From IMG/VR virus record IMGVR_UViG_3300043571_000313, positions 9,810 to 73,809 of that record: 64,000 nt of DNA. The stretch is one strand, 5' to 3'. Shown here piece by piece: positions 4,579 to 19,652 of the stretch. Source of the DNA: a virus. Each line of letters opens with the position of its first letter. Position 1 is the first letter of the stretch. The notes under the pieces were generated by a model that worked only from the letters and a program-made list of their open reading frames with translations, did no database searches and had not been told where the DNA came from. The position numbers and the translations under genes were made by a program.

Positions 4579-5019
4579 ATGCCGTCGCTCAACAAAGTCA
4601 TGCTCATGGGCAATCTCACCCGAGATCCCGAGCTCCGCGTTACCCCCAAGGGCACCGCCATCTGCCAGTTCTCACTGGCCATTAACCGCGAGTTCAAACT
4701 CGAGTCGGGCGAGAAGCGCGACGAGGTTGTCTTCGTTGACGTCGAGGCATGGGGTAAGGCGGGCGAGACCGTCGCGAAGTACCTCACCAAGGGGAAGCCG
4801 CTGTTCGTCGAGGGCCGGCTGAAGCTGGAGCAGTGGGAAGACAAAAAGACCGGCGAGAAGCGCAGCCGCATGAAGGTCGTGCTTGAACAATTTCAGTTCA
4901 TTGGCGTCCGAGAGAACGCAGGCGGTGGCGAGCAGCAGTCCGGCGGCGAACAGCACGCGCCGGCTCCCGCCTCCAAGCCAGCGTCGCAGGACAACCTCGA
5001 TGAGGACATGCCATTCTGA
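4579..5019 (+). CDS. ssb: single-stranded DNA-binding protein
   Basis: NKVMLMGNLTRDPELR OB-fold start, VEGRL, acidic tail ending DEDMPF. Confidence 0.97.
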   Translation: MPSLNKVMLMGNLTRDPELRVTPKGTAICQFSLAINREFKLESGEKRDEVVFVDVEAWGKAGETVAKYLTKGKPLFVEGRLKLEQWEDKKTGEKRSRMKVVLEQFQFIGVRENAGGGEQQSGGEQHAPAPASKPASQDNLDEDMPF

Positions 5020-8000
5020 TGTCTGGCTCAACGAACTCTCTTGTCCAAGGGTACAGGGCGTACCTTGAACGCAGCGGCAAGGTTGACCTCCGCACCGACA
5101 CCGAGCTCACGGTCGAGCTCGGTGACCTCCTGCGCTCAAAGGGCAACGATGCCTTTGATCTGAAGGCGTCGGAGTATCCCGACTTCCGCGAGCAGTACCT
5201 CACAGCCACGCAGTCGACGGATCGGGGTGTGATCGGTGAGGTCGCGGCCGGCGCGCGGCGCGGTGCGCGCAGCCTGGCAGGGACGGCGATGGGTGCCGTC
5301 GCACTCGGCCTCGATGCCGTGGGTGCGAACGAGACCGCGAAGAGTCTGGCCACGAAGGCCGAGGAGTTCGCTTCCGGCGGCGAAGACAATGCGGCCACCG
5401 TCGGCCGGATGAAGGACGTCATAGACGTCGAGGGCGGCGTGCGGTACGCCGCCGGCAAGATCGGCGAGGCGGTTCCGTCCATCGCTGAAGCCCTCGTCAC
5501 TGCCACGATCGGCGCGACGGCTGGCACGGCGGCGGCACCCGGACCCGGCACAGCAGGCGGTGCAGCCGCAGGCTTCATCGGCAAGCAGGCCGTGAAGCAA
5601 ATGATTCGCAAAGGCGTCGCGACACGAATCCTCGGAAAAGATGTTACGGAAGCCGCTCTCGAGACAGCGCTCAAGGATGCTGCCAATGCCACGCTGCGCA
5701 CCGCGTTCGTGAACGAGAGCCGCGCGCTCGCCGCGCGCATGGGTGCCGGCGCCGTCGGCGCGATCAACTCCCTCGGCCTTTCGTCGGGCGAAATCTACAA
5801 CGAGACCGGCGACGTTGCCACGTCGCTCGGTGCTGGCGCCATCGCCGCGATCCCTGACACGATCCTGCCGACCTACATCGTAGGGAAGTTCTTCCGGGGT
5901 GCCGCCAGTGCTGACGACGTGGCGCGAGCGGGCGGTTTCATGAAGCGGCTCGCCACCGAGGCCGCGAAGACCATGCCGATCGAGGCCGGCACCGAAGCAT
6001 TTCAGGAACTCGTCAACATCGCTGCCGTCAAGTTCAACAAGGGCGAGCCAGCCACCCTCGATGCGGCCGACCTCGAGCGCATCAAGGAAGCGGCGGTGGG
6101 TGGATTGGCTGGCGGTTTGGTGGGAGCGCCCATCGCTGCGGCGCCCGCGCCAAACGCCGCCATCGAAGCCCGGCGTGCGGCGGCAACCGGCACGACACCC
6201 CCGCCGCCCGGCACACCTGTTACGCCGCCGCCGCCCCCGGCGCCCAAGACTCCGACGCGCGGCGAGGTTGTGGCGAAGTGGGTCGCGGCTGCGCCAGACC
6301 TACAGGATGCCCGGATCAACGCGCTGCTGCGCGTCACCCGCACCAAGGACGAGGATCAGGAACTCGAAGTCCTGAATGCGCTCGTGTCCCAGCGGCCGCC
6401 GGCCGTCGCCGCCACTGCGACGCCGCCGCCACCCGCTCCTTCGCCCGCATCAACTGCAACCCCTGCGCCGGCCGCATCAAATTGGCTGACCGAACAAATA
6501 GATCGCGATGCTGCGACTGCCGACCGCTTGGGCTGGACTCAGAAGATCGGCGACATGGCGGCACAGCGGATGACGGCTCGCCAGATTCGGGATGCGCTAC
6601 CGTACCGCGAGAACGGCATCGACCAGATGGACGCGATGAGCATTGTGCTTTCCGCTAGGAATAAGCTGAAAATTCCATCGCAGGAAGAGCGAGTAGAATT
6701 TGAGGAATGGATTAAGGCTAGGCAGCAAACCGCTTCCGCGCCTGCCGCAAGCATGGGCACACCACCGGCCGCGCCGGCACCTAGTGCAGTGGGCGCGGCC
6801 GGTGCAACGGTGACGCCGCTGGTGTCGGCACCCACCCCGCCGCCCCCGCCGCCGGTTGTCGCCCCCGCCCCGGCGCCAAAGCCGCCGACGGCCGCCGAGC
6901 TCACTGACCGGATCAACTCCGCGAACCGCCGGTTCGGGACCATCATCAGCCGTGTCCCGACGCTGGACTTTGCGGCGGCGAAGACCGCGCTCGAAGCCAT
7001 CAGCACGTCGCCGACGGACCTCGCGAACGCGGTCCAAAAGTTTGAGGCGTCCGTCGAAACTCTCGAAACGCTCGCAGTCGCCGAGGCTGCGAAGATCGCA
7101 GCGGGCACCGCGCAGAAGCGGCAGGAGGTTGCCACGTCCCGGGCGAAGAACCTTGCCGAAAAGCTGGATGCGCAGGTTGCCGCCGCCGCCGACCGCGCGC
7201 GCAAGCGCGCCGAGAAGAACGCGAAGATTCTGGCGAAGGAAGCCGAGGCGCCTGCGCCTCCCGCACCGGCGCCTCCGGGTTTCCGCTTGGCCACAGATCA
7301 GGAGATGAGCCTGCCTCTTCCATTGGAGGGTCAGTTTGTGCAGACGGCGAGCGGCGTCATATTTCGTGAGGGAGAGCAACCCGTGGGCGAGGCGGTCCAG
7401 CCGGTAAGAGTCGCGGTTTATCAGAAAGGCGAAAGGTTCCTCACGCAGAGACAGTATGAGGCTGAAGACGTCGCTCCGGTGGCGGAACCCGTCGTCACCC
7501 CGACCGTTCCTGCCCCCGCCGATTTACGAGCCGAGCAGGACGAGGCTGAGAGCGAAGATGATGCCGCCGCGACCGAGCAAATGCGCGCCATGGGTCGCTT
7601 CGCCGACGCGCTGCTTGCCAAGCAAGGCAAAAAAGCCGCCGAGGTGGTGCCGCCCCCCACCCCCGCCGACGACCTCAAAACCCGCCTCGATGCCGTGCTC
7701 AACCCTCCTGTCGAGGTGGCGCCGCTGTCGTTCGGCAAGATCGCGGCGATGGATTCGGAGCTGAATACTCAAGGCGCATCAGACAACTCGGGCACGCGCA
7801 CGAAGTCGCGCGTCGCTTACGCAATCCGCGACGATCGCGACACGTCGATCCCGGAGGATCAGCGTCCGGTCTATCTCAAGGGCACCGTCGACTACTCGAA
7901 GGCTGAGGGGCTGCTGCGCGTTGGTCCCGGAGCAACGAAGGGCGTCGGTAAGGCGGTCTTTGCCATGGGTAAGAATCGCGGCAAGCCAGCCGAGCGAACC

Positions 8001-11000
8001 AAGACCATTGAGCCTGGCGGATCGCAACAGGTACTACTTGAGGATCTGGCGAAGGCGGGATTCGTGCCGTACTTGAGGATCGTTTTCGACGGCGAGCCGG
8101 CCGCCATCAGCCGCCACTTCGCCAACATGGCGGAACTGGATGCGGCTATCGCCAAGACCGAGAAGGTGCCCGCTGCCACGACCGCTGTGAATGTGGCTGC
8201 TGGGCGCAGCACCCTGCGCTCTGACATCATCACAACGGGAGACGCGGCAATGACTGTCGCCGAATCCGCGCTCGCCCCCGAGGACGCGGCGAACGAGCAG
8301 TCGCCGGCTGCTGCGCTGGCAGAGGCGATGACAAAGGTGATGGACGGCATGACCACCACCATGCTCGACAGCATCGTTCGCCGCGCCGCGAAGGCGAAGG
8401 CCTCGATCGAGGCGACGATCGAGGGCATGCCTGCATTCGGCCGGGAGCTGCTGAAGAAGGTGATGGTCGAGACCGATGCCACCCCGGCGATGGTTGTTAC
8501 CTACGTTCGAAGCTCACTGCCGGCCGACACTGAGATCCCGGCTGGCCCGGGAACCTTTTCGCTCGATGCCAAGAAGGCCACGACATCGAAGACGACCGCA
8601 GCACCCGCGCTCAAGGGGTTCGACAAGGTGCCGCTGGCGGCGCTCGAAAAGCTGTATGAGGTCATCACCCGCTCGCCCAAGAACCTCGACGGAAACTTCG
8701 ACGGCAAGGAGCTTTCGTCCGGCTGGCTTGATCGACTCAATATCCTGTTCGAGCGGACGGGCATGGCGTCATTCGATGAGTTCGTCGCCACGCTGGACAA
8801 GTTGTCCAAGGCGGCGAAGTCGCCGACCCAGTTCGCGGCTGCGCTCAAGGGCAAGCCGATGTATGAGAGTCAGGAGTTCACCGTCCCGCTCCCGCCGGTC
8901 GGCCACTTCGAGGCGCTGGTGCAGCGTCTCCGCAACAACGGCTTCGATGTCGAGGTGATCCAGCGCGAGCTGGGCATGACGCTCGCCGGCATGTATCGCG
9001 GCGGGAAAATCTTCGTCGCGCTGGAGGACATGGCCAACGCCAACCTCGCCGGTCTTCGGCGCCTGATTCACGAGGCTGGCCACGCGGTCATCGACCAGGA
9101 GTCCATGCAGACGCGCGAGGATCTGCAGCGTGCGGTTGAGAGCACGATGAGCGAGGCCGACAACGGCGCGATCTTCAAGGCGGCGCTGAACGCCGGCAAG
9201 GACTGGGAGGAAATGCTGGTCGACACTACCGCGATCAAGCTGGCCGAGGAAGGCTTCGGCGAGAAGTCAGCCACCATTGCCGAGGCGATCTGGCGGACGG
9301 TGAAGGACGTTTACTACCGGGTGGGCATGGCGATGCTGCGCGCGCTGGGCGTCGATCCGTCGCCGGAAAGTGTCCTTGCGTGGTGGGACAATAACATGCG
9401 GCGCCACCTGGGCGGCGACTTCGACTTCCGATTCACAGACCTCTTCCGCCCACACGTTGAGCGCAACGCCGAGCGCGTCTCCCGCTTCACCATCGCCGAC
9501 GGGCAAGACATTCCCGACCTCCTCGATCCTATCACCGGCCGCGTGACGCAGGCCGAGGTAGTGCCGGACACCGTCGAGGCAGCGGAGTGGAACCTCAAGT
9601 TCATGAAGGATGGCGTGGCCGGCGCGGACATGGACTACACCGAAGCCATGGCGCGGGTCACGGCGGCGGCATGGAACGAGGCGATGCCCGTGATCCAGCG
9701 GCTCAAGGCAGAGCTCCTGCCGGCCGGGACGGATGATCAGTTCTGGGCCATCTTTTCCCCATCGAAGGACACTCCGCAGAAAATCGTTGAGGAGATGGAG
9801 AAGCGGGTGCCCGGCGCAGCGACGGCAAAGGTCGGTGGTGAGAAGATGACCGATGCGATGAACTCTCGCGCGCGTGCGAAAGCGTTCCGCATCATCACCG
9901 GACTTGCTCGAGCAGCCCGCAAGCGCGCGGCCGGCAGCGAAGCAGCCATCACCCGCGAGTCGGACGCGATCGTTGCCAAGGCGGAACAGCTAAACCGTGC
10001 CGACCGCGAGCTCCGCGACGCGACCGCAATGGATGCTGTTTTCAACGACGCGCTGCGCGACCTCATCAAGGAACTCTCGGTCGGCATCGACAGCGGACCC
10101 GACACTGCTTTTGCGGCCGGCAAGCTGGCGGGCGCCATCCGCGAGATCGAGCGGCTGACAGACAAGGACGCGATCCCCGCCGAGTACCAGAACGTTTTCA
10201 AGCGGCTACTCGACAGCGGCGGCGTGTCGGTCTTCGACTACCTGAGCGCCATCGCCCGCCTGAAGCTGCCTCTCGGCAGCATGAAGGTGCCGGACATCAT
10301 GAAGGCGATCAGCGAGAACGCTGCTTCCGACTCCCGCCTTGCTTCGCTCAACGATCAACGCCCCCTCGCCGTCGCGCTCTCCACCCTGGCGCGCAACTCG
10401 ACGCGCGAGATGGACCTCCTTCAACTGCGCTCACTCAAGGACGCTGCCGAATACACTTCGATCCGCGCCGAGCTGGACGAGATCCAAGTAGCCAACGAAA
10501 CCCGCCTCGAGGAAATCGCCAAGGGGATCGACGCCAAGGCCGAGAGTCTGAGTCTGCGGGACCGGCTGAAGCAGGCATACGTTGAGGCACGCCGGGATTT
10601 CAACCGCTCGCGCAAAACAATCCAGCGCCAGCAGGAGTTGGTCATCCAACGCAAGCGCTTTGCCGACGTCATGGAGGAGCGCGCCACGGAGCTATCCCGC
10701 GACGTGGGATCGTTCTCGTTTTGGGAGGCGCACGACGGCGCTCAATACCGGGCGATGACCCGGGGTGACGACGGCAAGTGGACGGCAACCGAGCGCACGC
10801 TGCGCATGGTGGGCGATGAGATTACTGAACAGCACGAGCAGGTTTCGCACGACATGGCGATGAACCGGCTTTGGCTGAACATGCACAAGGATCAGGCTGG
10901 CTCCCGCCTCTATGAAGAGGTGAAGCGCCAGACATGGGAACTCACCAAGCTCGACTTCGCCAAGAACTATGAGGCGGCGACACGCTTCCGCATGGACCGC

Positions 11001-14000
11001 TGGCTGCAGCCGCTCGGCCAGAAGTTCGCCGGCACGGGTGAGCTGGCCGGCACCAAGATCAAGCAGATGCTCATTGCGTGGCAGTCGGTGATGTTTCAGC
11101 ACTCCGACCAGGTGGATGCCGCCGCGCGCCGCTGGACGAAGGCGCTGAAAGATGCGTCGAAGGACGCAGGTTACACGAACGAGAAGCGATTCTTCGACGA
11201 GGTGGTGAACCCCGCCATCTACGCCATCGAGAGTGACCCGGGGCGCGACGAGGCCGGCGCTCTCCGCACCGCGCGCAAGGTGGCGGCCCGCATCATTCCG
11301 CCCGCCTACACCGTCGGGCCGAACTTCAACCTGAAGCTGGAGCGGCTGCTGCGCGCGCACAAGGAGGTGAGCGAACTCATCGTTCAGATCGCCGAGAAAA
11401 ATGGCGTGTATGTGAACGACAGTCGCATGCGCGATCCGCTCACGGGCAAGGCCGGCATGCTGCGGCACGCCATCAAGTACGGCTGGTTCACTTCGACTCG
11501 CAGGCTGCGGGGCGAGGCGGTGCGCATCCTGACCAAAGACATGCACCAGGCCGGGTGGCGCGACGACACCTTCACGGATCTGCCCGAGACTGCCGAACTT
11601 GACAAGCTGGTGGGCAAGCACTTCACGCCGACGATCATCAAAGGATTCGTGGAGCCGTTCGTCCGCAAGCCTGGGCGCGAGGTGTTCTTCGGAGCAAAGG
11701 ATGCCAACGATAAGCCGACCTATGTTTCGCAGCTCACGGCGCAGGAGTTGTGGGAAGGCGCTGGCGGCGACGTGATGAAGTTCATCGACGCGATGTATGA
11801 TCGGACCAACCCGCTCGACAATCGCGACGCGCTGCCCGAGTACCGGCGCTCAATCCTCGCCCGCTTCAATCAGCTCTACACGATGGAGTCGAAGCTGGCC
11901 GCAAAGACGGAGTCGGGCGGCGGACTCGATCACATGACGCAGAAGAGCCATCGCGTGATGGACTCCCGCACCAATGACCTGATCCCGCCTGAGCATTTTC
12001 AGTATGACATTTTCTCTCCCATCGATGCGCGGCGGGCACTGACGGAGGTGGCGTTCCACGCTGCGTTCGGCCGCGACGGCGTCGCGCTGGACAAGGCGAT
12101 GATCGATCTCGACAAGGGGCTCAACCTGTCGGCCGACCGCTACAAGATGATCCCCGAGGGCACGCGCAAAGAGAAGGAGGCCTACGCCAAGGAGCAGGGC
12201 TGGGACTTCAAGAAGCTGGAGCGTGCGGCCGACGATCGCAAAGCAGTCTCGGCCTGGAAGGCGAAACTCGTGAAGCACTTCACCGGCAGCGAAGCCGTGG
12301 TCGGCGACGCGCGCACGATGCTCGAGCTCGCACAGCTGAACGTGGCCCTGCTGCTCAATCAGCCGAAGTCGGCGCTGTGGAATCTCCTCTCCATCCTCGA
12401 GTATCCGCTGGTCTATCGCGGCCTCAACCGCAGCTCAGTCCGCGCCACTGCGACGGCCGCGCGCGTGCTGGCGCGCGAGATCACTGGCTCGTTTCTCAAG
12501 GTGGCCGGCGTGAACCTCACCCAGAAATTCGAGTACGCGAATGAGATCGCTGAGATCGTGGAGCGCAAGGAGACGGAGCGCCTGGACTTCGGCACACTCA
12601 TGGCGGACATCGGGCCGGATGGCCGATTCACTCAGGGCGGTGTAGGTAACACCGTGACGGAGGTGAGCCGTGGCATCCAGACTGCGATGCGAAAGGGGTT
12701 CAAGGGTAACAACGCGCTGTGGGCACCCTTCAACTTCATCAGCCACAAGGCCGACACCGCCATCGCGACGGCCAACGTGCAGGCGTTTGAGATGATGGTG
12801 AAGCGCGCGATCGACTACTTCGAACGCCACCCGGAAGCGCGTGACAACCCCGCGTTCCGGCTCACGTCCGACCACCTCGGGATGTCGGAAGGCTGGTTCT
12901 CTGAGGCTGGCACCTTCGACTACTTCCGCACGCGCGCGATGGAGTACGGGCTTGGATCCCTGGAGGACATCGCCCGCGAAGCGGCCATCGGACGTGACAG
13001 CGGCGGCAAGCTGCTCACCCGCGATCAGGCGCTCGGCGTGGCGATGATGGCGCTCAATGAAATCTCGCTGCATGCCGGCGTGAACTCCCGCCTGATCGAG
13101 ATGATCGACAATCCGATCCTGCGCTTCGGCGGCCTGATGCTGGGCTGGCCCCTGTCGAAGGTGAATCAGATCAACGACGCCTTTAAGGATGCCGATGGCA
13201 AGGCGACGCTGGCCTCGGCGATGCGTGCGGTCGGGATCATGGCGGCGTGGACGCTGCCGGCTGGCCTCGCCTACTCGCTAATGGTCGACGAGTATGACGA
13301 CAAGCTCCTGAACAAGAAGTCGAACCTCCGCAGCATCGACCCCATTGCGATCACGCCGGTCGTCGGCCCGCTGCTGGCGGCGGCTTCCGATTCGGGCAAC
13401 ATCCTCGGCATGCTTGAGCGGCTGGCGCGCGCCGGAACCTACGGTATCGTGGGCGACATGGTGAACTCCTTCACCAACGTCGTCGATCCGTCGAGTGGGC
13501 AGCGTGACTTCGACCTCAACAGCCGCGTGCTGGTCTTCAATCAGTTCGCGAACATCCGCGACGTCTTCCGTAACCTCATCCACCAAGACGGCGAGATGAC
13601 GTACCAGTCCACCGGGCGCCCGCTGATCTCGGCGATGGGTGGCGGCGGCCTACTGCAGGCGATGCAGCTGGTGAACGCCCGTCTTGGCCTGACCAACGCC
13701 GAGGCGGCAGTCACGAATCGGATCAACGTGAACAACTACCTGCGCGCTGCCGGCCGTGCCGTCGACATCGAGCTTCGTGGTGGCACCGCCCGCAGCCTGC
13801 CAACAGCACGCTCCGTCTGGCTGAATCAGATGCAGGTGATGGCGCTCTCCAACGATCGCGTTGGATTCGCCGAGGCGTACCGCAACGCCGTCGACGTGGC
13901 CCGCCGCCAGGGCGAGCCGGACCCCGAGGCCAAGGTGCTCGAAGACTTCAAGTCCCGCCACCCGCTTTCGTCGGTGTTCCGCACCAAGCCCTCCGAGGTG

Positions 14001-14213
14001 GAGATGGGCAAACTCATGTCGACTCTTGACGACACAGGGAAGCAGGCGGTTCAGCAGGCACTCGCCTTGTTCGAATCCTTCACTGAGTTAATCGAGCCGA
14101 ACCCAATCATCCAGCGAATCAAGCAGCAGCAGGCGGCACAAATGCGAGCGGCGCAGCCACTCACCATTGAGCAGCTGCGCCGCCGTGCGGCATCAGGTGT
14201 GATGGGTTACTGA
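5019..14213 (+). CDS. giant polyvalent virion/ejection protein with a zincin-like HExxH domain
   Basis: 3064-aa ORF; Gly/Ala-rich N-terminus, Pro-rich linkers, LIHEAGH...EEMLVD at about 9069. Confidence 0.7.
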   Translation: MSGSTNSLVQGYRAYLERSGKVDLRTDTELTVELGDLLRSKGNDAFDLKASEYPDFREQYLTATQSTDRGVIGEVAAGARRGARSLAGTAMGAVALGLDAVGANETAKSLATKAEEFASGGEDNAATVGRMKDVIDVEGGVRYAAGKIGEAVPSIAEALVTATIGATAGTAAAPGPGTAGGAAAGFIGKQAVKQMIRKGVATRILGKDVTEAALETALKDAANATLRTAFVNESRALAARMGAGAVGAINSLGLSSGEIYNETGDVATSLGAGAIAAIPDTILPTYIVGKFFRGAASADDVARAGGFMKRLATEAAKTMPIEAGTEAFQELVNIAAVKFNKGEPATLDAADLERIKEAAVGGLAGGLVGAPIAAAPAPNAAIEARRAAATGTTPPPPGTPVTPPPPPAPKTPTRGEVVAKWVAAAPDLQDARINALLRVTRTKDEDQELEVLNALVSQRPPAVAATATPPPPAPSPASTATPAPAASNWLTEQIDRDAATADRLGWTQKIGDMAAQRMTARQIRDALPYRENGIDQMDAMSIVLSARNKLKIPSQEERVEFEEWIKARQQTASAPAASMGTPPAAPAPSAVGAAGATVTPLVSAPTPPPPPPVVAPAPAPKPPTAAELTDRINSANRRFGTIISRVPTLDFAAAKTALEAISTSPTDLANAVQKFEASVETLETLAVAEAAKIAAGTAQKRQEVATSRAKNLAEKLDAQVAAAADRARKRAEKNAKILAKEAEAPAPPAPAPPGFRLATDQEMSLPLPLEGQFVQTASGVIFREGEQPVGEAVQPVRVAVYQKGERFLTQRQYEAEDVAPVAEPVVTPTVPAPADLRAEQDEAESEDDAAATEQMRAMGRFADALLAKQGKKAAEVVPPPTPADDLKTRLDAVLNPPVEVAPLSFGKIAAMDSELNTQGASDNSGTRTKSRVAYAIRDDRDTSIPEDQRPVYLKGTVDYSKAEGLLRVGPGATKGVGKAVFAMGKNRGKPAERTKTIEPGGSQQVLLEDLAKAGFVPYLRIVFDGEPAAISRHFANMAELDAAIAKTEKVPAATTAVNVAAGRSTLRSDIITTGDAAMTVAESALAPEDAANEQSPAAALAEAMTKVMDGMTTTMLDSIVRRAAKAKASIEATIEGMPAFGRELLKKVMVETDATPAMVVTYVRSSLPADTEIPAGPGTFSLDAKKATTSKTTAAPALKGFDKVPLAALEKLYEVITRSPKNLDGNFDGKELSSGWLDRLNILFERTGMASFDEFVATLDKLSKAAKSPTQFAAALKGKPMYESQEFTVPLPPVGHFEALVQRLRNNGFDVEVIQRELGMTLAGMYRGGKIFVALEDMANANLAGLRRLIHEAGHAVIDQESMQTREDLQRAVESTMSEADNGAIFKAALNAGKDWEEMLVDTTAIKLAEEGFGEKSATIAEAIWRTVKDVYYRVGMAMLRALGVDPSPESVLAWWDNNMRRHLGGDFDFRFTDLFRPHVERNAERVSRFTIADGQDIPDLLDPITGRVTQAEVVPDTVEAAEWNLKFMKDGVAGADMDYTEAMARVTAAAWNEAMPVIQRLKAELLPAGTDDQFWAIFSPSKDTPQKIVEEMEKRVPGAATAKVGGEKMTDAMNSRARAKAFRIITGLARAARKRAAGSEAAITRESDAIVAKAEQLNRADRELRDATAMDAVFNDALRDLIKELSVGIDSGPDTAFAAGKLAGAIREIERLTDKDAIPAEYQNVFKRLLDSGGVSVFDYLSAIARLKLPLGSMKVPDIMKAISENAASDSRLASLNDQRPLAVALSTLARNSTREMDLLQLRSLKDAAEYTSIRAELDEIQVANETRLEEIAKGIDAKAESLSLRDRLKQAYVEARRDFNRSRKTIQRQQELVIQRKRFADVMEERATELSRDVGSFSFWEAHDGAQYRAMTRGDDGKWTATERTLRMVGDEITEQHEQVSHDMAMNRLWLNMHKDQAGSRLYEEVKRQTWELTKLDFAKNYEAATRFRMDRWLQPLGQKFAGTGELAGTKIKQMLIAWQSVMFQHSDQVDAAARRWTKALKDASKDAGYTNEKRFFDEVVNPAIYAIESDPGRDEAGALRTARKVAARIIPPAYTVGPNFNLKLERLLRAHKEVSELIVQIAEKNGVYVNDSRMRDPLTGKAGMLRHAIKYGWFTSTRRLRGEAVRILTKDMHQAGWRDDTFTDLPETAELDKLVGKHFTPTIIKGFVEPFVRKPGREVFFGAKDANDKPTYVSQLTAQELWEGAGGDVMKFIDAMYDRTNPLDNRDALPEYRRSILARFNQLYTMESKLAAKTESGGGLDHMTQKSHRVMDSRTNDLIPPEHFQYDIFSPIDARRALTEVAFHAAFGRDGVALDKAMIDLDKGLNLSADRYKMIPEGTRKEKEAYAKEQGWDFKKLERAADDRKAVSAWKAKLVKHFTGSEAVVGDARTMLELAQLNVALLLNQPKSALWNLLSILEYPLVYRGLNRSSVRATATAARVLAREITGSFLKVAGVNLTQKFEYANEIAEIVERKETERLDFGTLMADIGPDGRFTQGGVGNTVTEVSRGIQTAMRKGFKGNNALWAPFNFISHKADTAIATANVQAFEMMVKRAIDYFERHPEARDNPAFRLTSDHLGMSEGWFSEAGTFDYFRTRAMEYGLGSLEDIAREAAIGRDSGGKLLTRDQALGVAMMALNEISLHAGVNSRLIEMIDNPILRFGGLMLGWPLSKVNQINDAFKDADGKATLASAMRAVGIMAAWTLPAGLAYSLMVDEYDDKLLNKKSNLRSIDPIAITPVVGPLLAAASDSGNILGMLERLARAGTYGIVGDMVNSFTNVVDPSSGQRDFDLNSRVLVFNQFANIRDVFRNLIHQDGEMTYQSTGRPLISAMGGGGLLQAMQLVNARLGLTNAEAAVTNRINVNNYLRAAGRAVDIELRGGTARSLPTARSVWLNQMQVMALSNDRVGFAEAYRNAVDVARRQGEPDPEAKVLEDFKSRHPLSSVFRTKPSEVEMGKLMSTLDDTGKQAVQQALALFESFTELIEPNPIIQRIKQQQAAQMRAAQPLTIEQLRRRAASGVMGY

Positions 14214-14214
14214 G

Positions 14215-15321
14215 TCAGCGGTGCACGTAGCCCTCGGTTACGGCTTCCGAAGTGCGCGAGTGGCCAAGCAGCCGGCCGATCTGCTCGATGGTCTTACCCG
14301 CCTTCTCCATGCGGGTGGCGAACGAATGGCGCAGGCAGTGGAACGACTTCCCCTCGATGCCGAGGTCGGCTAGTATGCGGGCGTAGTAAACGCTGTGCCG
14401 TGCGCGCCTCGCGGGGTCGAGGGCTATCGCGCGCTCATCAGGGAAGACGTACTTCGGGTCGAGGCATTCAGCCATCATGTCGAAGAAGATTCCGCGCAGC
14501 TCGCCGCCGCCGAGAAGCGGGTCGTCGATCGGCAGCGCCACCCGCGCCCCACTCTTCCGCGTCCAGACGACGATCTCATCGGGCATGATGCTGCCCCACT
14601 CCAGGCACGCGCAGTCCGACAGGCGCAGCCCCGCCCAATAGGACAGCGCCGTCCACCACTTCCACTTGCCGGTCGTGTGCGCCATGATGTGCTTGAACTC
14701 GCGCTCGCTGAACGGCACGCGCCGGACCGGCTCCTTCTGCTCATGCGAAAGATCGTTGAGCCGGACCCTAACCAGCTTTGATGGGTTGCCGGCGTAGTAC
14801 GCCTTCGCCGTGACGAAGTCGAAGAACGATCGGATGGATGCGAGGCGCACGTCCCGGTTGCTGGCCGTCGTCGTGTCCTTCTTGGAGTTTACGAATCCAT
14901 CGAGGTGCTCGAAGGTGAGGCGGGTGACCGGCCACTTCGATGCGTCGTTGGCCTTGACCAGGTGGCGCAGCACGAGCTCTTGCGTGCGCACCGTGTTGGG
15001 CGCGGCGTTCGTCTTGCGCCATACTACCCACTCGGCGATCGCCTGATCGAGCGACACCTTGCGGCCGGCCATGATGGCAGTGAGGGCTTCAGCAGTGAGC
15101 GCACGAGCACGCGCCGCCATCTCCATCTCCAGCACCTTCGACTGCACGACGACCTCGCGCGCCTTCTCGATGGTGGATTGCTTTGTCGATCGCGTGTGCG
15201 ACTTGCCCTGCGCGTCGAGGAACTTGACGTGATAGATGCCCGACTCCTGATCGCGGGTCAGGTGGGCATCGAGTTCGGCTTTGGTTGGCACGCCGTAACC
15301 CATGCCATGTGGTGACTTCAT
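14215..15321 (-). CDS. int: tyrosine recombinase/integrase (non-IntI)
   Basis: Catalytic set GLRLSD (R), TRKSG (K), FHCLRH (HxxR), LGH, EGY; N-terminal arm-binding-like region. Start placed at ATG 15321 (or 15303); the longer track ORF overlaps the upstream gene. Confidence 0.92.
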   Translation of the reverse strand: MKSPHGMGYGVPTKAELDAHLTRDQESGIYHVKFLDAQGKSHTRSTKQSTIEKAREVVVQSKVLEMEMAARARALTAEALTAIMAGRKVSLDQAIAEWVVWRKTNAAPNTVRTQELVLRHLVKANDASKWPVTRLTFEHLDGFVNSKKDTTTASNRDVRLASIRSFFDFVTAKAYYAGNPSKLVRVRLNDLSHEQKEPVRRVPFSEREFKHIMAHTTGKWKWWTALSYWAGLRLSDCACLEWGSIMPDEIVVWTRKSGARVALPIDDPLLGGGELRGIFFDMMAECLDPKYVFPDERAIALDPARRARHSVYYARILADLGIEGKSFHCLRHSFATRMEKAGKTIEQIGRLLGHSRTSEAVTEGYVHR

Positions 15322-15337
15322 TTTGAAGATTAAAATG
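15319..15337. promoter_or_regulatory. candidate operator CATTTT-N7-AAAATG over the integrase start codon
   Basis: CATTTT GAAGATT AAAATG; same geometry as sites at 25851, 45108 and 48223. Confidence 0.5.
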
Positions 15338-15351
15338 TGGGTGCTTGCCCG

Positions 15352-15404
15352 GCCGAACGAGTCGCCGGAGCGGACGCTACGCGCCGCTCGGCTTGGTGTT
15401 CGGC
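15352..15404 (+). mobile_element. attC: integron attC-like site 1 (53 bp)
   Basis: R'' GCCGAAC, 5 nt, L'' GCCGGAGC, GG(A)CGC-TAC-GCG-CC, L' GCTCGGC, 5 nt, R' GTTCGGC; two extrahelical bases at canonical positions. Confidence 0.85.
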
Positions 15405-15727
15405 CGATAGTGTTCCGTCCCGGTGGTTGCAAATCCGTATCGTTTCCCGGTCGGGTCCGGGAGCAGTTGGCAGTTGGCGATGACATCACACACCAGCGTC
15501 CGCTCCGGGTCGCGCATGTGCTTCTGCATCTGCGATAGCATGTCCACGCGCCTTCGATTCCAGTCTGCGGAGTGCGTGAGCTTGCGGCAGTGCTCCACCA
15601 GTTCGTCCTGCATGAGCTTTCCGGTCGGGTCGCCCACGGCAGCGCGAATGTCCGCCAAAAGGCCCAACAAGGCGGTCGAGCCAACAGCCGCCTCGCGTTT
15701 CCGTTTCGTTGCGTTCCGGTTCTTCAT
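15377..15727 (-). CDS. hypothetical protein, antisense cassette ORF 1
   Basis: 116 aa; starts inside attC2 (ATGA overlap) and stops at the apex of attC1. Confidence 0.7.
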   Translation of the reverse strand: MKNRNATKRKREAAVGSTALLGLLADIRAAVGDPTGKLMQDELVEHCRKLTHSADWNRRRVDMLSQMQKHMRDPERTLVCDVIANCQLLPDPTGKRYGFATTGTEHYRPNTKPSGA

Positions 15728-15787
15728 ACACTTTTTCTGTCGGCCACGCCCGCTGTCGGCGGCTGTGGCTCACCTTGGTCGTTCGGC
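15662..15787 (+). mobile_element. attC: integron attC-like site 2 (126 bp)
   Basis: R'' GCCCAAC, AAGGC, L'' GGT(C)GAGC, C(A)ACAGCCGCC ... GGCGGCTGTG, L' GCTCACC, TTGGTC, R' GTTCGGC; bottom-strand extrahelical G and T. Confidence 0.9.
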
Positions 15788-16026
15788 AATCGCATCGCGT
15801 GAGCAATTTCGTGCGCAGAATAATCGCTTGCCCGATCACTGCCACCCCCACCTTCAAGTCCGTGCTTTTTGCAAAAACGATCGTACTCGTAATCAGAAAT
15901 GACCGGACGGCACATCACGTAATATAAATACTGATGCGCTCGCATCGTTAAAAATGGCGAACAAGGCGCCACAGCCAAGCCGGACGGCCGCCCGTCCTTG
16001 GTCGCTTCGGTTTCAGGTGTCTTCAT
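15724..16026 (-). CDS. stand-alone NAD-dependent DNA ligase domain Ia-like protein, antisense cassette ORF 2
   Basis: AHQYLYYVMCRPVISDYEYDRF matches the LigA Ia motif HxYxYY...PxISDxEYD; ATG 16026 overlaps the upstream stop inside attC3. Confidence 0.75.
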   Translation of the reverse strand: MKTPETEATKDGRPSGLAVAPCSPFLTMRAHQYLYYVMCRPVISDYEYDRFCKKHGLEGGGGSDRASDYSAHEIAHAMRLPNDQGEPQPPTAGVADRKSV

Positions 16027-16062
16027 GATTTTTCTCCGGCTGGCTGATCTTTGGAGTTGCTG
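15956..16062 (+). mobile_element. attC: integron attC-like site 3 (107 bp)
   Basis: R'' GGCGAAC, AAGGC, L'' GCCACAGC, C(A)AGCCGGA ... TCCGGCTG, L' GCTGATC, TTTGGA, R' GTTGCTG (degenerate after GTT). Confidence 0.75.
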
Positions 16063-16268
16063 CCAAGCGGCGACTGATTCACCCCACTCCAAAAGGACTG
16101 GTCATTCAGCGCGTTCGCGACAGCCTTACATGCCTCCTCGCGGGTCATGCCTTTTGCGATACAAGCCTCGATGGCTGACTGTGCATCGTCATAAAGCATC
16201 TTGCCCACTTGCGCCGGGGTGAGGCCGCAGATTGTGCTCTGAGTTAGGATGGCTTTTTTCTTTTCCAT
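16023..16268 (-). CDS. hypothetical protein ending inside attC3
   Basis: 81-aa ORF starting 12 bp after the helicase stop. Confidence 0.6.
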   Translation of the reverse strand: MEKKKAILTQSTICGLTPAQVGKMLYDDAQSAIEACIAKGMTREEACKAVANALNDQSFWSGVNQSPLGSNSKDQPAGEKS

Positions 16269-16280
16269 AAGAGGGCAATG

Positions 16281-19200
16281 TTACGCCGCCACCTCGATGA
16301 CTGGCGCGAGGACCGGACGGTTGGCAATGATGAGCTGCTTGCGCAGTTCAATCCACTGCGACTCGCACTCCGACTCAGAGAGGACGTCGCCGTCCTCGGC
16401 CTTGAAGTTGACGATGTGCTCGGCAAGAACCTCGCTCGCGTCGAGGGTCTTGAAGTCCCGAGGCACCCGCTTCCCATGCAGGCACAGCGTCGCGGCATCC
16501 TGCTTCAGCGCGACCCGATCGAACAGCAGTTCCTCGATGGAGTTCTGATGCAGGACGCACCAGATCTTCACCGGCTTCGGCGAGGTCAGACGCCACACTC
16601 GACCCTGTGCCTGGTTGAGCGTGCCATAGCTCCACTCGAGCGAGCCAACGATGAGGTTCGGGCATTGGTCGAAGCTGTGCCCTTGGGCGCACTTGATGCC
16701 CATGAGCATGACCCGAGCGTCGCCCTTCTTGAAGCGGTTCGCCTCGGCCGCATGCAGGTCCGGCCGGACGGTGGAGTCGATGCGGGCAATCGGGATCTTG
16801 GCGTTCGCCAGGCGGGATGCCAGCTCCGACGACTGGCCGACGCGCGCCGACACCACCACGACCTGCTCGCCGCGCTTCAGGCAATCGCGCACCAGCTGCA
16901 GGATGGTGATGGTCTTGTGATTGAAGTTGGATTTGCACATGTCCCTCGTGTAGTCGAGGGACGCTGGCGAGGCGCAGCACCCACGCAGCCGTGACGACTG
17001 GACGCGGGCAATGGTCAGCGCGCTCTTGAACTCGGTCAGGTAGTTGCGCCGCTCCAGCCAGAACTGATACAGCTTCGACTGCTCCTTGCCCATGGCGACG
17101 CGGACGTCGATGACCTCGCACGGCTGCAGGTTCGGGTTGCAATCCTTCTTGCTGATGTAGGCGAGCGTGGGCTTGAGCAGCTTCAGCAGGCGGGCTGGCG
17201 AACTGATGACCGGCGAGTGCTTGGTCCCGGTGTTGCGCCAGCCGCGCTTGCCCCGGGCCTTCGCCTTCCACTGTGCAGTCAGATCCTCCTCGACGGAGAG
17301 GAATGTCGAGTTGAACCGGCCGATCTCGTCGACGGCGTAGGGCCAGGCCGCATTGCGCATCTTGCCCTTGTGCCAGTCTTTCACGCACAGCCATCCCATG
17401 AGGGAGAAGATATTCGAGATGACATTGGGGATCGGTGTCGCCGTGAGGGCGAAGCGATACTTGGGCTGCAGGCGGAACAGGTTCTTTGTTACCTGCGCCT
17501 CTGCGTTACAGTAGAGGTGCGCCTCATCGCAGATGACCATGTCCCACGCATCGCCGTGGGTGGAGGCGACGATCGTGGCGAGCGACGGCAGGCCGATGCA
17601 GCGAATGCCGTGCTTGTTGCCCGCGCCGACGTTGCGGCAGAACTGCTCCTCGACCGGGCGCTTCTCGTCATACTTGAGGTTGAAGCGCTCGCAGAACTTC
17701 TTCTCCGCAACCCGATCCCAGCTTTCGGGAAGATGCTCGAAGCCACCGTTGCTGAAGTAGGCCTGCGGGTAGGTGATGTAGATGCCGGGCGGGAGTTCGC
17801 CGGCGTTGGCATGGAGGATGGCGTACCAATCCTCGGCGCTGAAGAGCTGGAAGACCGGCTCGCCGGGAGCGAAGCGCTGGATCTCGGACACCCACTGCGA
17901 TGCTTGATAGTCGATCTCCTCATCCTCCTCGGTGGAGCGCATCGTACCCTGCGGTGCGATCAGCAGCGTGCGCTTCGGAGACTTGAGGGCGATGAGCGTC
18001 AGGGCGCCGAGCGACTTGCCGGTCCCCGTCTCGGCTGCGACCAGCCCGTAATCCTTGCACGCCATGCGAGCGTAGAAGTCCAGCTGGCCGGGGAAGTAGG
18101 TAAACCCAGCCATCATCTCATTGAACCGCATCGCGTTCTTGTTGCGCTCGAACTGATCGACCTCGACCTCGGCGATCGTCGGGACGAACGGCTTGTCGAA
18201 GAGAGTCCACAGCATGTCCTCGGGGTGCTGCCAGCTCATGCCTTCGGCCGGCCGATCCATGAACCGATGCACGCGGCGGTGATCGTCGGTCACCTCGATG
18301 TAGCGATCCTCGCCGGACAGCCGGCACTCGTGATCCTCGATCTCCGTGGTGTCCTCGTCCTCGTCGTAGTAGATCTTCTTGCGGGTGAACTTCTCCGTGA
18401 AGGTGTAGGTCCCGGTGCGAATCTCGTACCGCTTCCCGACCGTGAGCTTGATGATGCCGGCCTCGTGCGCGGCCTTGCACTTCAGCGCCTCCTCCTCGTC
18501 GGCGTAGGCAACGAGCTCGAAGTCCGTGACCGGCATGATGGGACACGCCATCGAGGCGACCTCAGCCAGGGCGGCGGCGATAGCCTTGCGCGCCTCGGGC
18601 TGGATCGTGTAGATGCCGTCGTTGACGAACTGATGCAGCAGCTTCCGCGTCTCCTTCTCCGTGGTCAGCGTGAGCGGGTGGCACCCATTGATGCGGTGCA
18701 GCCGGACGATCTCGTCGTCCTTGATCTTCACCTGTGCACGGGTGCTCAGGTAGGTGCGAAGCGCGCCGTCCTTGCCGAGGTAGATATTAAACTTCGGCCG
18801 GTCGAGGTGTTCTTCCTTGATGATCTTGGACAGGTTATTCCAGTCGAGGTAAAGCGAGTAGTGCTCAGTGTAGGGTGAGTACCAGTACGGCTGGCCGGAC
18901 ACCTGATGCAGGTTGCTCTTGATCGTGCGTCCGTACTCGAAGAGCTGTTGCTGATCCGGCATGTGGTCCCACACCTTCTGATTGCGCGGCCGGCCGACGA
19001 TGTTGCCGAAGTGCACGATGCCGAGCTCGACATCGCAGTTCTCCCAGATGCCACCGGCGGGGAACCGCTGGTAGAGGTACACCCACGGGTCATCCTGAAT
19101 GCCGAGCTTCTCAATCGTCTTGGCGTTGGAGATGAGGAAGCCGCAGCCGTTGTTCGCGAGCCGCTTCTTGATCATCTGCCACGTCCACTCGGTCGAGTCG

Positions 19201-19652
19201 ATCGTCTCACCATTCGCCAGCTTCCAGCGGATAGCGAACGGCGGGTTCGACACGATGCACGGGAAGCGCAGGTTCGGGAAGATCTCATCCATCACCTCGA
19301 AGGTGTGGACGCAGGACCCGGTGATGCGGTCGACGGGTTTGTCCCAGGTGTTGCGGCCGGTGAGCGAGGTGCGCGCCGCCTCATCCTCATCGGCGAAGCG
19401 CTTGTCGATCTCGGTGCCGTAGTATTGCTGCGCCGAGAGCGCGCGGATCAGGTTGCCGCCGGCGCACTGCGGATCGAAGACGGTGTTGAAGTTGCCGAAC
19501 GGGAGCTGGGCCACGAGGCCTTGGGCAAGCCAAGGCGGTGTTTGATACTGCTGCTGGCCGCCCTGAAGCGCGTGCTTCGCGGAGACGGCTGCGTCGATGA
19601 CTTCCTGGATGTTTTCGTTTTCGATCCCGGAGCGTGCGTCGGTGATGTTCAT
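16281..19652 (-). CDS. N6-adenine methyltransferase fused to SNF2-family helicase (DarB-like)
   Basis: YQTP, FDPQCAGG (motif I), SNPPF (motif IV); AETGTGKS Walker A, DEAH, ALTATP, QAQGRVWR. Confidence 0.88.
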   Translation of the reverse strand: MNITDARSGIENENIQEVIDAAVSAKHALQGGQQQYQTPPWLAQGLVAQLPFGNFNTVFDPQCAGGNLIRALSAQQYYGTEIDKRFADEDEAARTSLTGRNTWDKPVDRITGSCVHTFEVMDEIFPNLRFPCIVSNPPFAIRWKLANGETIDSTEWTWQMIKKRLANNGCGFLISNAKTIEKLGIQDDPWVYLYQRFPAGGIWENCDVELGIVHFGNIVGRPRNQKVWDHMPDQQQLFEYGRTIKSNLHQVSGQPYWYSPYTEHYSLYLDWNNLSKIIKEEHLDRPKFNIYLGKDGALRTYLSTRAQVKIKDDEIVRLHRINGCHPLTLTTEKETRKLLHQFVNDGIYTIQPEARKAIAAALAEVASMACPIMPVTDFELVAYADEEEALKCKAAHEAGIIKLTVGKRYEIRTGTYTFTEKFTRKKIYYDEDEDTTEIEDHECRLSGEDRYIEVTDDHRRVHRFMDRPAEGMSWQHPEDMLWTLFDKPFVPTIAEVEVDQFERNKNAMRFNEMMAGFTYFPGQLDFYARMACKDYGLVAAETGTGKSLGALTLIALKSPKRTLLIAPQGTMRSTEEDEEIDYQASQWVSEIQRFAPGEPVFQLFSAEDWYAILHANAGELPPGIYITYPQAYFSNGGFEHLPESWDRVAEKKFCERFNLKYDEKRPVEEQFCRNVGAGNKHGIRCIGLPSLATIVASTHGDAWDMVICDEAHLYCNAEAQVTKNLFRLQPKYRFALTATPIPNVISNIFSLMGWLCVKDWHKGKMRNAAWPYAVDEIGRFNSTFLSVEEDLTAQWKAKARGKRGWRNTGTKHSPVISSPARLLKLLKPTLAYISKKDCNPNLQPCEVIDVRVAMGKEQSKLYQFWLERRNYLTEFKSALTIARVQSSRLRGCCASPASLDYTRDMCKSNFNHKTITILQLVRDCLKRGEQVVVVSARVGQSSELASRLANAKIPIARIDSTVRPDLHAAEANRFKKGDARVMLMGIKCAQGHSFDQCPNLIVGSLEWSYGTLNQAQGRVWRLTSPKPVKIWCVLHQNSIEELLFDRVALKQDAATLCLHGKRVPRDFKTLDASEVLAEHIVNFKAEDGDVLSESECESQWIELRKQLIIANRPVLAPVIEVAA

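Follow-up and report, generated by a model that had tools for sequence, protein, structure and literature searches.

A probable cluster of integron attC sites with antisense gene cassettes in a lake phage genome

The window analyzed here, a stretch of 64,000 nucleotides from the complete, terminally redundant 73.8-kb genome of a lake-water phage, contains three successive sites with the architecture of integron attC sites, located between a phage-type tyrosine integrase and a helicase. Very probably these are genuine attC sites that make up a small CALIN in the phage, with cassettes moved by an integron integrase (IntI) in trans and with the adjacent integrase uninvolved. The features of the region are listed below, with the attC sites and cassettes given on the attC top strand.

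14215..15321, minus strand: phage-type tyrosine integrase (368 aa; PF00589 at 46.9 bits, phrog_1 at 1.5e-32)
15352..15404, plus strand: attC site 1 (53 nt, 3-nt loop; R' = GTTCGGC at 15398-15404, crossover after G15398)
15377..15727, minus strand: o116 (116 aa, on the attC bottom strand; start in the site 2 loop, stop in the site 1 loop)
15399..15781, plus strand: cassette A (383 bp, the o116 body and its own attC, site 2)
15662..15787, plus strand: attC site 2 (126 nt; R' = GTTCGGC at 15781-15787)
15724..16026, minus strand: o100 (start in the loop of site 3 at 16026 or else at Met29 (15942), the starting point of many homologues)
15782..16056, plus strand: cassette B (275 bp, the o100 body and its own attC, site 3)
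15956..16062, plus strand: attC site 3 (107 nt; R' = GTTGCTG at 16056-16062)
16023..16268, minus strand: o81 (orphan ORF that flanks the array and draws the tail beyond its Asn codon from site 3)
16281..19652, minus strand: SNF2-type helicase with a methyltransferase-like N-terminus (PF00176, PF00271, phrog_62)

On the plus strand, all three sites share the same anatomy, consisting of an R'' box ending in AAC, a 5-nt spacer, an L'' arm, a variable loop, L', a spacer of 5-6 nt, and an R' box starting with GTT. The L'' arm is made up of 3 bp, an extra base, 6 bp, an extra A, and a further stem, so that 6 bp separate the two extra bases, which occupy positions 16 and 23 from R'' in the attCaadA7 numbering. 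The R boxes of sites 1, 2, and 3 are GCCGAAC/GTTCGGC, GCCCAAC/GTTCGGC, and GGCGAAC/GTTGCTG, respectively; with C or G as its fourth base, R' matches the GTTRRRY consensus imperfectly. The crossover G residues at 15398, 15781, and 16056 delimit the cassettes of 383 and 275 bp. A preliminary description of this DNA had proposed three directly oriented sites of this kind, and all the features it described are present where it had placed them.

According to our geometry scanner, site 1 forms 12 of 13 L-box pairs and 7 of 7 R-box pairs, site 2 forms 13/13 and 6/7, and site 3 forms 11/13 and, with its own adjacent R', only 3/7. A better partner for the R'' of site 3 is the R' of site 2 (6/7), at which the cassette of site 3 begins. 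Such a hybrid R box, in which R'' prefers the preceding R', is clear in site 3 and in site c of the related locus L002 and neutral or absent in three other sites, a suggestive pattern. In attCaadA7, dG16 and dT23 are unpaired (Nivina et al. 2016, PMC5027507), and the bottom strand of site 2 carries an unpaired G and T at exactly these two positions. The phage sites further resemble attCaadA7 in their bottom-strand R' (RYYYAAC), their unpaired central spacer, and their variable terminal structure. In contrast to attCaadA7, sites 2 and 3 have long loops of 47-71 nt that contain a stop/start junction of two genes, and the bottom strand is coding.

The sites are not a product of chance. The geometry scanner, applied to both strands of the whole 73.8-kb genome, found these three sites alone, all on one strand, while 100 dinucleotide shuffles gave on average 0.47 sites with at least 11 of 13 L-box pairs, 0.04 with at least 12, and none with 13. 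A covariance model run over the whole window with its filters off returned no sites beyond the three. Our covariance model, R1, was trained on phage sites only, and pairing in its training set is partly built in, since these sites were picked by our own scanner; it scored site 2 at 90 bits, site 3 at 72 bits, and site 1, which had been left out of the training set, at 47.3 bits. The free energy of the single-stranded DNA fold is significant for site 1 only (z = -4.2), marginal for site 2, and not significant for site 3. Because long loops make energy a poor test, we relied on geometry and comparison, which supply the evidence for sites 2 and 3. Across eight phage sites, all chosen by the pairing-based scanner, 11 of the 13 pairs of the L helix change on both sides with 92% of cells paired, as compared with at most 37.5% in slid controls of the whole structure. 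Furthermore, the homologue of site 1 in the related locus L001 lies at the same position and shows compensatory changes in its stem. The assignment to the attC class is based on scanner geometry, with R1 as a stand-in for the curated IntegronFinder/HattCI models; Rfam holds no attC family.

The cassette ORFs all lie on the minus strand, and thus on the attC bottom strand, an orientation supported by GC3 and homologues and different from the canonical top-strand layout of integron cassettes. The longest ORF is antisense to attC in nine of ten phage cassettes, but in only 6 of 62 cassettes of bacterial arrays, the other 56 being sense. For o116 (GC3 of 0.79, 229 homologues), the 41 viral loci with homologues have antisense attC sites on their flanks, and all 64 attC matches around the homologues are antisense to the gene. 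Each site of the window spans a junction between co-directional genes, with stop/start overlaps and ribosome-binding sites located in the loops. More specifically, site 2 holds the ATGA overlap of o100 and o116 at 15724-15727, and site 3 holds that of o81 and o100 at 16023-16026.

The protein families record the position of the attC boundary. Similarity within the o116 family stops exactly at 'RPN', the Asn codon of the R' box, and the tails diverge beyond it. Alignment of the o100 family shows a conserved core that runs up to L(A/P)N, again the R' Asn codon, and one homologue, P0241, is 96% identical to o100 up to this codon and carries a different tail after it. The AAC is in frame at 29 of 32 sites. 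In the phage cassettes, unlike bacterial ones, the ORF is on the bottom strand, begins within the loop of the cassette's own attC or shortly after it, and exits at the in-frame Asn codon (AA|C); each ORF is completed by a few codons and a stop from the next attC. As for possible functions, Pfam, PHROG, and NCBIfam gave none for o116 or o81, and o100 resembles the Ia domain of NAD-dependent DNA ligase with a score below the gathering threshold (PF22745, E = 2e-5). Against 1.84 billion representatives, o81 had one match besides its own sequence, a repeat protein. R1 found no match between 16063 and 16400, so there is no attC on the helicase side of o81, and o81 is not a complete cassette.

Natural variants show that content at this locus changes with breaks in the R' box. 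The stretch itself is present in 24 lake metagenomes. In contigs from two lake metagenome runs, X6 and X8, cassette A is precisely absent, with a joint from 15397 to 15781 that has site 1 as its left and site 2 as its right breakpoint; the seven letters GTTCGGC fit either side. This is the excision joint (G15398 to 15782) that the preliminary description had predicted, found here in assembled contigs. Taken alone, the joint would formally also admit a short-homology deletion between the similar 13-nt ends. A second case is strain L113, whose 93% identity spans the integrase and site 1. It diverges inside R' after GTTC and then continues into a different cassette, in which a further antisense ORF takes the same tail from site 1. 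The other match of the metagenome pattern scan, L112, was a chance 21-nt match. Three different states are thus found beside site 1 among near-identical strains, in keeping with the earlier suggestion that the sites delimit cassettes that are gained and lost; as these variants come from assembled contigs, they give presence or absence bounded at R' and not the direction of the event. The assembled contigs of four metagenome runs, which cannot show rare forms, contained no 15397 to 16056 joint and no circle junction. Together, the 383-bp joint, the L113 divergence, and the end of protein homology at the AAC codon point to a recombination crossover at the G|TT of R'.

In the mechanism that we propose, the minus strand would act as the recombinogenic bottom strand and would fold in vivo, as single-stranded DNA, into an R box, an unpaired spacer, and an L box with positions 16 and 23 unpaired. 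An integron integrase provided in trans would cut R' (top strand G|TT, bottom strand AA|C), and recombination between two attC sites would insert, excise, or swap cassettes. The enzyme could be supplied by the host, probably from an integron of the Verrucomicrobiota type, or by a co-resident element with its own IntI, such as G194 (described below). Since the ORF lies on the bottom strand, exits at an in-frame Asn, and takes its tail from the next attC, any cassette would fit into the leftward operon that runs from the helicase to the integrase, and the cassette ORFs may be translated by coupling through their ATGA overlaps.

The helicase is a backbone gene that bounds a variable region, as relatives keep the order of helicase, variable gap of 0-4.5 kb, and integrase. 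The integrase family holds this position in relatives with and without attC, and site 1 has kept its place directly upstream of the integrase in G000 as well as in G001. The relatives were obtained from an alignment query; scanning viral contigs with the single integrase protein gave nothing, and a blastn search of positions 14000-17000 against 50,697 phage records found no match. A tblastn search with the helicase gave one weak match. Nine contigs carry an identical integrase. As site 1 precedes it in transcription, the integrase gene itself was considered as a cassette, a reading that we rejected. Relatives that lack attC have the gene at this same place, and the R'' of site 1 forms only 3/7 pairs with the GTT found at the far end of the gene.

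The preliminary description had offered two explanations for the pairing of an integrase with an array, namely that the phage borrows an IntI or that its own recombinase processes attC. The latter would represent a new integron-like system in which the non-IntI integrase of the phage recombines the sites and site 1 serves as the equivalent of attI/attP. Several observations are compatible with it. The gene starts (15321) only 30 bp from site 1 and is divergent to the attC top strand, as intI is, an arrangement kept in L001; there is almost no non-coding room for an attP nearby, because the integrase stop abuts the stop of a giant ORF; and the complete genome encodes no IntI, the best match to the IntI model TIGR02249 being the phage integrase itself (25-35 bits, against a cut-off of 265). 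The divergence noted earlier holds only relative to the attC top strand, as the integrase is co-directional with the cassette ORFs. The absence of the IntI insertion, which had also been noted, is borne out: the integrase scores 34.8 bits against the same cut-off, and its alignment with P0098 and with the IntI of the bacterial genome G010 has gaps at the IntI-specific extra segments, including the KYP...W.W motif. The proposed arm-binding-like N-terminus found no family match, and only PF00589 and a weak SAM-like domain were detected.

In its other aspects, the evidence separates the integrase from the array, and we regard recombination of the sites by this enzyme as very improbable. Seven complete relatives have the same integrase family without any attC. 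In relative G002, arrays lie downstream of the integrase and upstream of the helicase rather than at the integrase 5' end, and in G003 they also occur at other positions. G199, a phage record estimated to be complete, has an array of the same type including an o116 cassette, but no PF00589 match and no tyrosine recombinase. In G194, an IMG/VR record of 56.8 kb, a nine-site array adjoins a true IntI that scores 280.5 bits and contains the IntI signature motif. Moreover, the phage enzyme lacks the IntI insertions that contact the unpaired bases. The integrase resembles lambda-type phage integrases (phrog_1, PF00589), which are not known to use attC sites; unlike a lambda-type integrase with its attP, no attP was identified here, and the structured sites alongside it are attC. 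The data thus do not support a meaningful pairing of integrase and array, and the integrase is probably a bystander that serves ordinary phage functions. Borrowing of an IntI fits the data, with no IntI in the genome, an array without tyrosine recombinase in G199, and one with an IntI in G194. Judged on sequence comparisons, an IntI in trans is the likeliest enzyme, and because the complete genome has none of its own, the array is a CALIN and not a complete integron.

As an alternative, the hairpins could act mainly as RNA elements that couple translation or stabilize mRNA where genes adjoin, with a convergent likeness to attC and with strain differences arising by homologous or short-homology recombination. 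The location of the sites at junctions of co-directional genes and the overlaps and ribosome-binding sites in their loops would suit such a role, as would the fixed reading frame through the sites and the sequence identity between the mRNA and the folding strand. However, convergence would have to yield the AAC/GTT ends, the 5-6-nt spacers, the unpaired positions 16 and 23, and an L box nearly identical in sequence to that of bacterial attC sites that adjoin IntI. It would also have to accommodate breakpoints within the 7-nt R' box in three independent comparisons and two otherwise unrelated viral genomes with one cassette alone in common. An RNA role is compatible with recombination and does not replace it, and as a full explanation it seems to us even less probable than action of the phage integrase. 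Least probable of all is that the sites are decayed, inactive relics of a bacterial chromosomal integron fragment acquired once by illegitimate recombination: such fragments are reported from Vibrio phages (PMC9892861) and the GC content of o100 and o81 is atypical (54%, the value of cassette B, vs 62% genome-wide), but the ORFs are antisense to attC, unlike those of 56 of 62 cassettes in bacterial arrays, the locus varies among near-identical strains, and the stems are intact with compensatory changes.

Integron recombination by an IntI in trans, the reading we prefer, is connected to bacteria by the attC type itself, which occurs elsewhere in association with IntI. In the Verrucomicrobia MAG G010, R1 matches an attC that some 930 bp separate from a true IntI (390 bits) in a divergent layout, and in other genomes of Verrucomicrobiota it finds arrays in which 10-15 sites are densely packed. 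Phage and bacterial attC sites have a nearly identical L box (GAGCCAAC paired with GGCTCAGC). The sedentary chromosomal integrons of Verrucomicrobiota (G010 contig C335, G109, G091) have the same attC geometry, cassettes of 270-830 bp, and sites that score 45-63 bits with R1. They differ from the phage array in having IntI in cis, a top-strand ORF followed by attC in 56 of 62 cassettes, and R boxes of GCCTAAC/GTTAGGC instead of GCCGAAC/GTTCGGC. R1 matched 23 of 151 Verrucomicrobiota genomes, as compared with 8 of 151 in another phylum. This higher rate and the MAG binning of integrase relatives suggest a link with Verrucomicrobiota. The complete integron of G194 is like the phage array in attC type and antisense ORFs and has an o116-family cassette (82% amino-acid identity), the only gene it has in common with the window phage, which, unlike G194, lacks a true IntI beside its array. 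G194 is called viral by IMG/VR and CheckV, while its ten largest ORFs include no structural phage gene in PHROG.

Integrons are viewed as bacterial gene-capture devices, and it is only recently that attC clusters were described in phages, as rare curiosities. In the present case, wild populations exhibit exchange whose breakpoints coincide with the predicted crossover, and one cassette is found in otherwise unrelated viral genomes. What appears to be new is that the ORFs occupy the bottom strand and begin inside or close to attC loops, and that crossovers keep to a fixed frame. The inverted, frame-locked cassette design suits polycistronic phage operons. It might represent a distinct, phage-adapted form of integron, with an antisense cassette pool common to unrelated lake phages, loop starts, a crossover inside an in-frame Asn codon, and drop-in to operons with coupled translation, moved by IntI that is in some cases phage-borne (G194); for this wider proposal, we see the case for and against as evenly poised. 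If true, integron recombination would offer phages a plug-and-play route to accessory and counter-defence genes, and a second, antisense cassette format would exist that current cassette annotation would mis-call. The array also offers a concrete way to test how recombination depends on the orientation of attC with respect to transcription.

CALINs, in which attC sites are clustered but no IntI is encoded, have already been published for phages, and IntI1 was shown there to recombine phage attC sites (Qi et al. 2023, PMC9892861). The array described here differs from these in its systematic bottom-strand ORFs, its starts in or near attC loops, and its fixed crossover frame, as well as in the gain, loss, or replacement of cassettes among natural strains of uncultured lake phages, for which a search of phage records yielded no relative. 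It resembles them in combining attC arrays and cassettes with no IntI, and also in its DNA methyltransferase cargo, which in this case is carried by relative G002, whose cassettes include N6_N4_Mtase and MT-A70 DNA methyltransferases, plausible anti-restriction genes.

The virus record is a single contig of 73,809 bp with direct terminal repeats and a GC content of 62%, and is estimated to be complete. The phage occurs in lake-water metagenomes, and no relative of it was found among 50,697 deposited phage genomes. The locus under study is a leftward operon with the following members:

16281-19652, minus strand, SNF2 helicase with a methyltransferase-like N-terminus
16023-16268, minus strand, o81, small ORF
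15724-16026, minus strand, o100, small ORF
15377-15727, minus strand, o116, small ORF
14215-15321, minus strand, tyrosine integrase

Stop against stop, the integrase gene lies 1 bp from a convergent ORF of 3064 aa (5019-14213), which is kept beside the integrase across the phage group and gave no match in a Pfam search.

Three attC sites lie on the plus strand of this operon (site 1, 15352-15404; site 2, 15662-15787; site 3, 15956-16062), each made up of an R'' ending in AAC, a 5-nt spacer, an L'' arm, a loop, L', a 5-6-nt spacer and an R' starting with GTT. The L'' arm consists in all three of 3 bp, an extra base, 6 bp, an extra A and further stem. Counted from R'', the unpaired bases fall at bottom-strand positions 16 and 23, like the published dG16 and dT23 of attCaadA7 (PMC5027507), and in site 2 the bases themselves are likewise G and T. 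A scanner written for exactly this geometry and run over both strands of the whole genome returned these three sites and no others, while 100 dinucleotide shuffles gave 0.47, 0.04 and 0 sites at three stringencies (at least 11, at least 12, and all 13 of the L-box pairs). The three attC-like sites of the preliminary description are thus real, and its cassette lengths of 383 bp (cassette A, 15399-15781) and 275 bp (cassette B, 15782-16056) and the 30 bp to the integrase start hold as given.

The integrase has many metagenomic relatives, and an alignment query built on it fetched 36 viral loci. Gene order is conserved in integrase-bearing loci: first the helicase, then a gap of about 0 to 4.5 kb, the integrase and the convergent giant ORF. 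In three relatives, the scanner found the same kind of site: one in L001, positioned like site 1 and with compensatory stem changes; several in L002; and one in the fetched locus L034, whose whole record (G003) holds three by model search. An alignment of eight sites (A3), with 11 of 13 L-helix pairs altered on both sides, was the source of a covariance model, R1. Outside its training set, R1 matched the L001 site, further L002 sites and, at 47 bits, site 1; across the window with filters off, its only matches were sites 1, 2 and 3. In the record of L002 (G002, a complete 72-kb phage), the sites form two groups, six of them downstream of the integrase and another three to four on the upstream side of the helicase. 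Each site straddles the junction of two co-directional genes, and two of the cassettes encode DNA methyltransferases. A second PF00589 tyrosine recombinase lies far from these arrays (G002:C1:21776-22240). The short stretch that separates the integrase start from site 1 (15322-15351; L001 5327-5380) holds a TTGA..TAAAATGT motif common to both phages, which may be an integrase promoter or binding site.

Scanning the integrase alignment against one genome per species yielded six MAG contigs, of which three bear a Verrucomicrobia label. One such MAG (G010) encodes a true IntI on the minus strand (390 bits on the IntI model TIGR02249, cut-off 265), with an R1 match on the plus strand about 930 bp from its 5' end, the textbook integron layout; the L box of this attC is nearly the same as in the phage sites. 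R1 matched 23 of 151 genomes sampled from Verrucomicrobiota, with dense arrays of 10-15 sites, and 8 of 151 from the phylum of another MAG, at lower scores. Because of these matches beside IntI, the L box and the phylum match rates, the phage sites are, by sequence, members of the attC class, with their closest likeness to the sites of Verrucomicrobiota. Assigning the phage itself a Verrucomicrobiota host is a weak conclusion.

The cassettes differ in orientation. Of 62 cassettes in bacterial arrays, 56 have their longest ORF in the sense of the attC top strand (orientation checked on G010); of 10 phage cassettes, 9 have it antisense. Phage cassette ORFs start in, or just after, their own attC loop, cross the cassette boundary at R' and stop inside the next attC; AAC is read in frame as Asn in 29 of the 32 unambiguous sites, where one third would be expected. 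Stop and start overlap as ATGA at 15724-15727 and 16023-16026, and o100 has an alternative start at an internal Met just outside site 3. The attC bottom strand would double as the mRNA-sense strand. The hairpin would then sit beside the start codon that follows, and would be opened when the upstream ORF is translated through the R'-L' arm; we infer translational coupling through the attC hairpin. Since 383 bp shifts the frame by the exact o100/o116 offset, once cassette A is lost, o100 runs on into site 1 in the frame of o116.

Three independent lines of sequence comparison indicate that the cassettes move, with the breakpoint in R' in all of them. When contigs (not raw reads) of four lake metagenomes were compared with 14000-17500, one contig each in runs X6 and X8 joined 15397 to 15781, skipping 383 bp; this is the excision joint that had been predicted, and seven letters (GTTCGGC) fit either side of it. 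Coverage of cassette A was almost nil in X8, and both forms were present in X6. Furthermore, a metagenome contig (L113) matches the window at 93% identity across the integrase and site 1 as far as GTTC within R', where the two part; beyond this point it has an antisense ORF of its own, of 122 aa, and a further attC. The six-residue tail of this ORF, encoded by site 1, is the same as that of o116, a natural example of tail-sharing. Finally, the 229 homologues of o116 have a core identity of 70-90%; likeness ends at 'RPN', which is the in-frame reading of the R' box, and beyond it the tails are unrelated. In the o100 family, likeness ends likewise at 'L(A/P)N' with differing tails, one member matching at 96% identity as far as this motif and differing past it. 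In at least two X6 contigs, the match at 15370-15404 is confined to the right half of site 1 and the sequence to either side is unrelated. Depth there reaches 18.7, while the flanks have about 8.6; this attC arm may occur in other contexts as well.

In 41 viral loci with o116 relatives, R1 gave 64 matches, every one antisense to the o116 relative, and the largest array had nine sites. Among these records, G194 (56.8 kb, 92% complete, an IMG/VR viral contig) shares only the o116 cassette with the window phage and encodes an IntI of its own:

L073 5231-6241 (G194:C1:16128-17138), true integron integrase adjoining a nine-site attC array

This IntI scores 280.5 bits, has the IntI signature motif and faces the array in the canonical divergent layout. 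The array ORFs run toward intI, and the contig also has an ORF of 5176 aa and, besides the IntI, an integrase of phage type.

The recombinase adjoining site 1 is, judged from its sequence, not an IntI: it scores 34.8 bits against the cut-off of 265 and, aligned with two true IntIs, shows gaps where their specific segments stand, which bears out the reported lack of the IntI-specific insertion. No IntI was found in the whole phage genome. That the phage's own integrase acts on the sites has a small probability; site 1 is kept next to the integrase in both the window phage and G001, and the attP of the window phage was not located. Among about 36 records with this integrase family, four (plus one weak match) carry attC, not always adjoining the integrase, and seven complete relatives showed none. 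The family is thus not coupled to attC, and the pairing of array and phage integrase, singled out at first as unusual, seems incidental. Another record estimated complete (G199) has an attC array but no PF00589 match, and IntI1 recombines phage attC sites (PMC9892861). Given these points and G194, the enzyme acting on the window sites would be an IntI supplied in trans.

Clusters of attC without IntI have been described in phages (Qi et al. 2023, PMC9892861), so attC in a phage is by itself nothing new. Antisense cassettes of this kind were not described in the literature searched. The antisense, frame-locked format, its spread across unrelated lake phages, its use by an IntI-bearing viral contig (G194) and the contig-level evidence, direct in kind, of cassette exchange among wild strains apparently go beyond the descriptions found.

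The small cassette proteins have features of their own. Residues 19-50 of o116 (15578-15673) form a 32-residue N-terminal stretch, 94-97% identical in dozens of otherwise different proteins of 74-174 aa, of which the attC arm encodes the first few residues only; it looks like a common N-terminal module joined to varied C-terminal parts. Apart from itself, o81 matched only P0270 (737 aa), in which the 31-residue stretch at o81 residues 25-55 is repeated seven times. The o100 family comprises proteins of 55-75 aa similar to domain Ia (NAD-binding) of NAD-dependent DNA ligase, standing alone without the rest of the ligase and with an invariant GGGGSDR motif.
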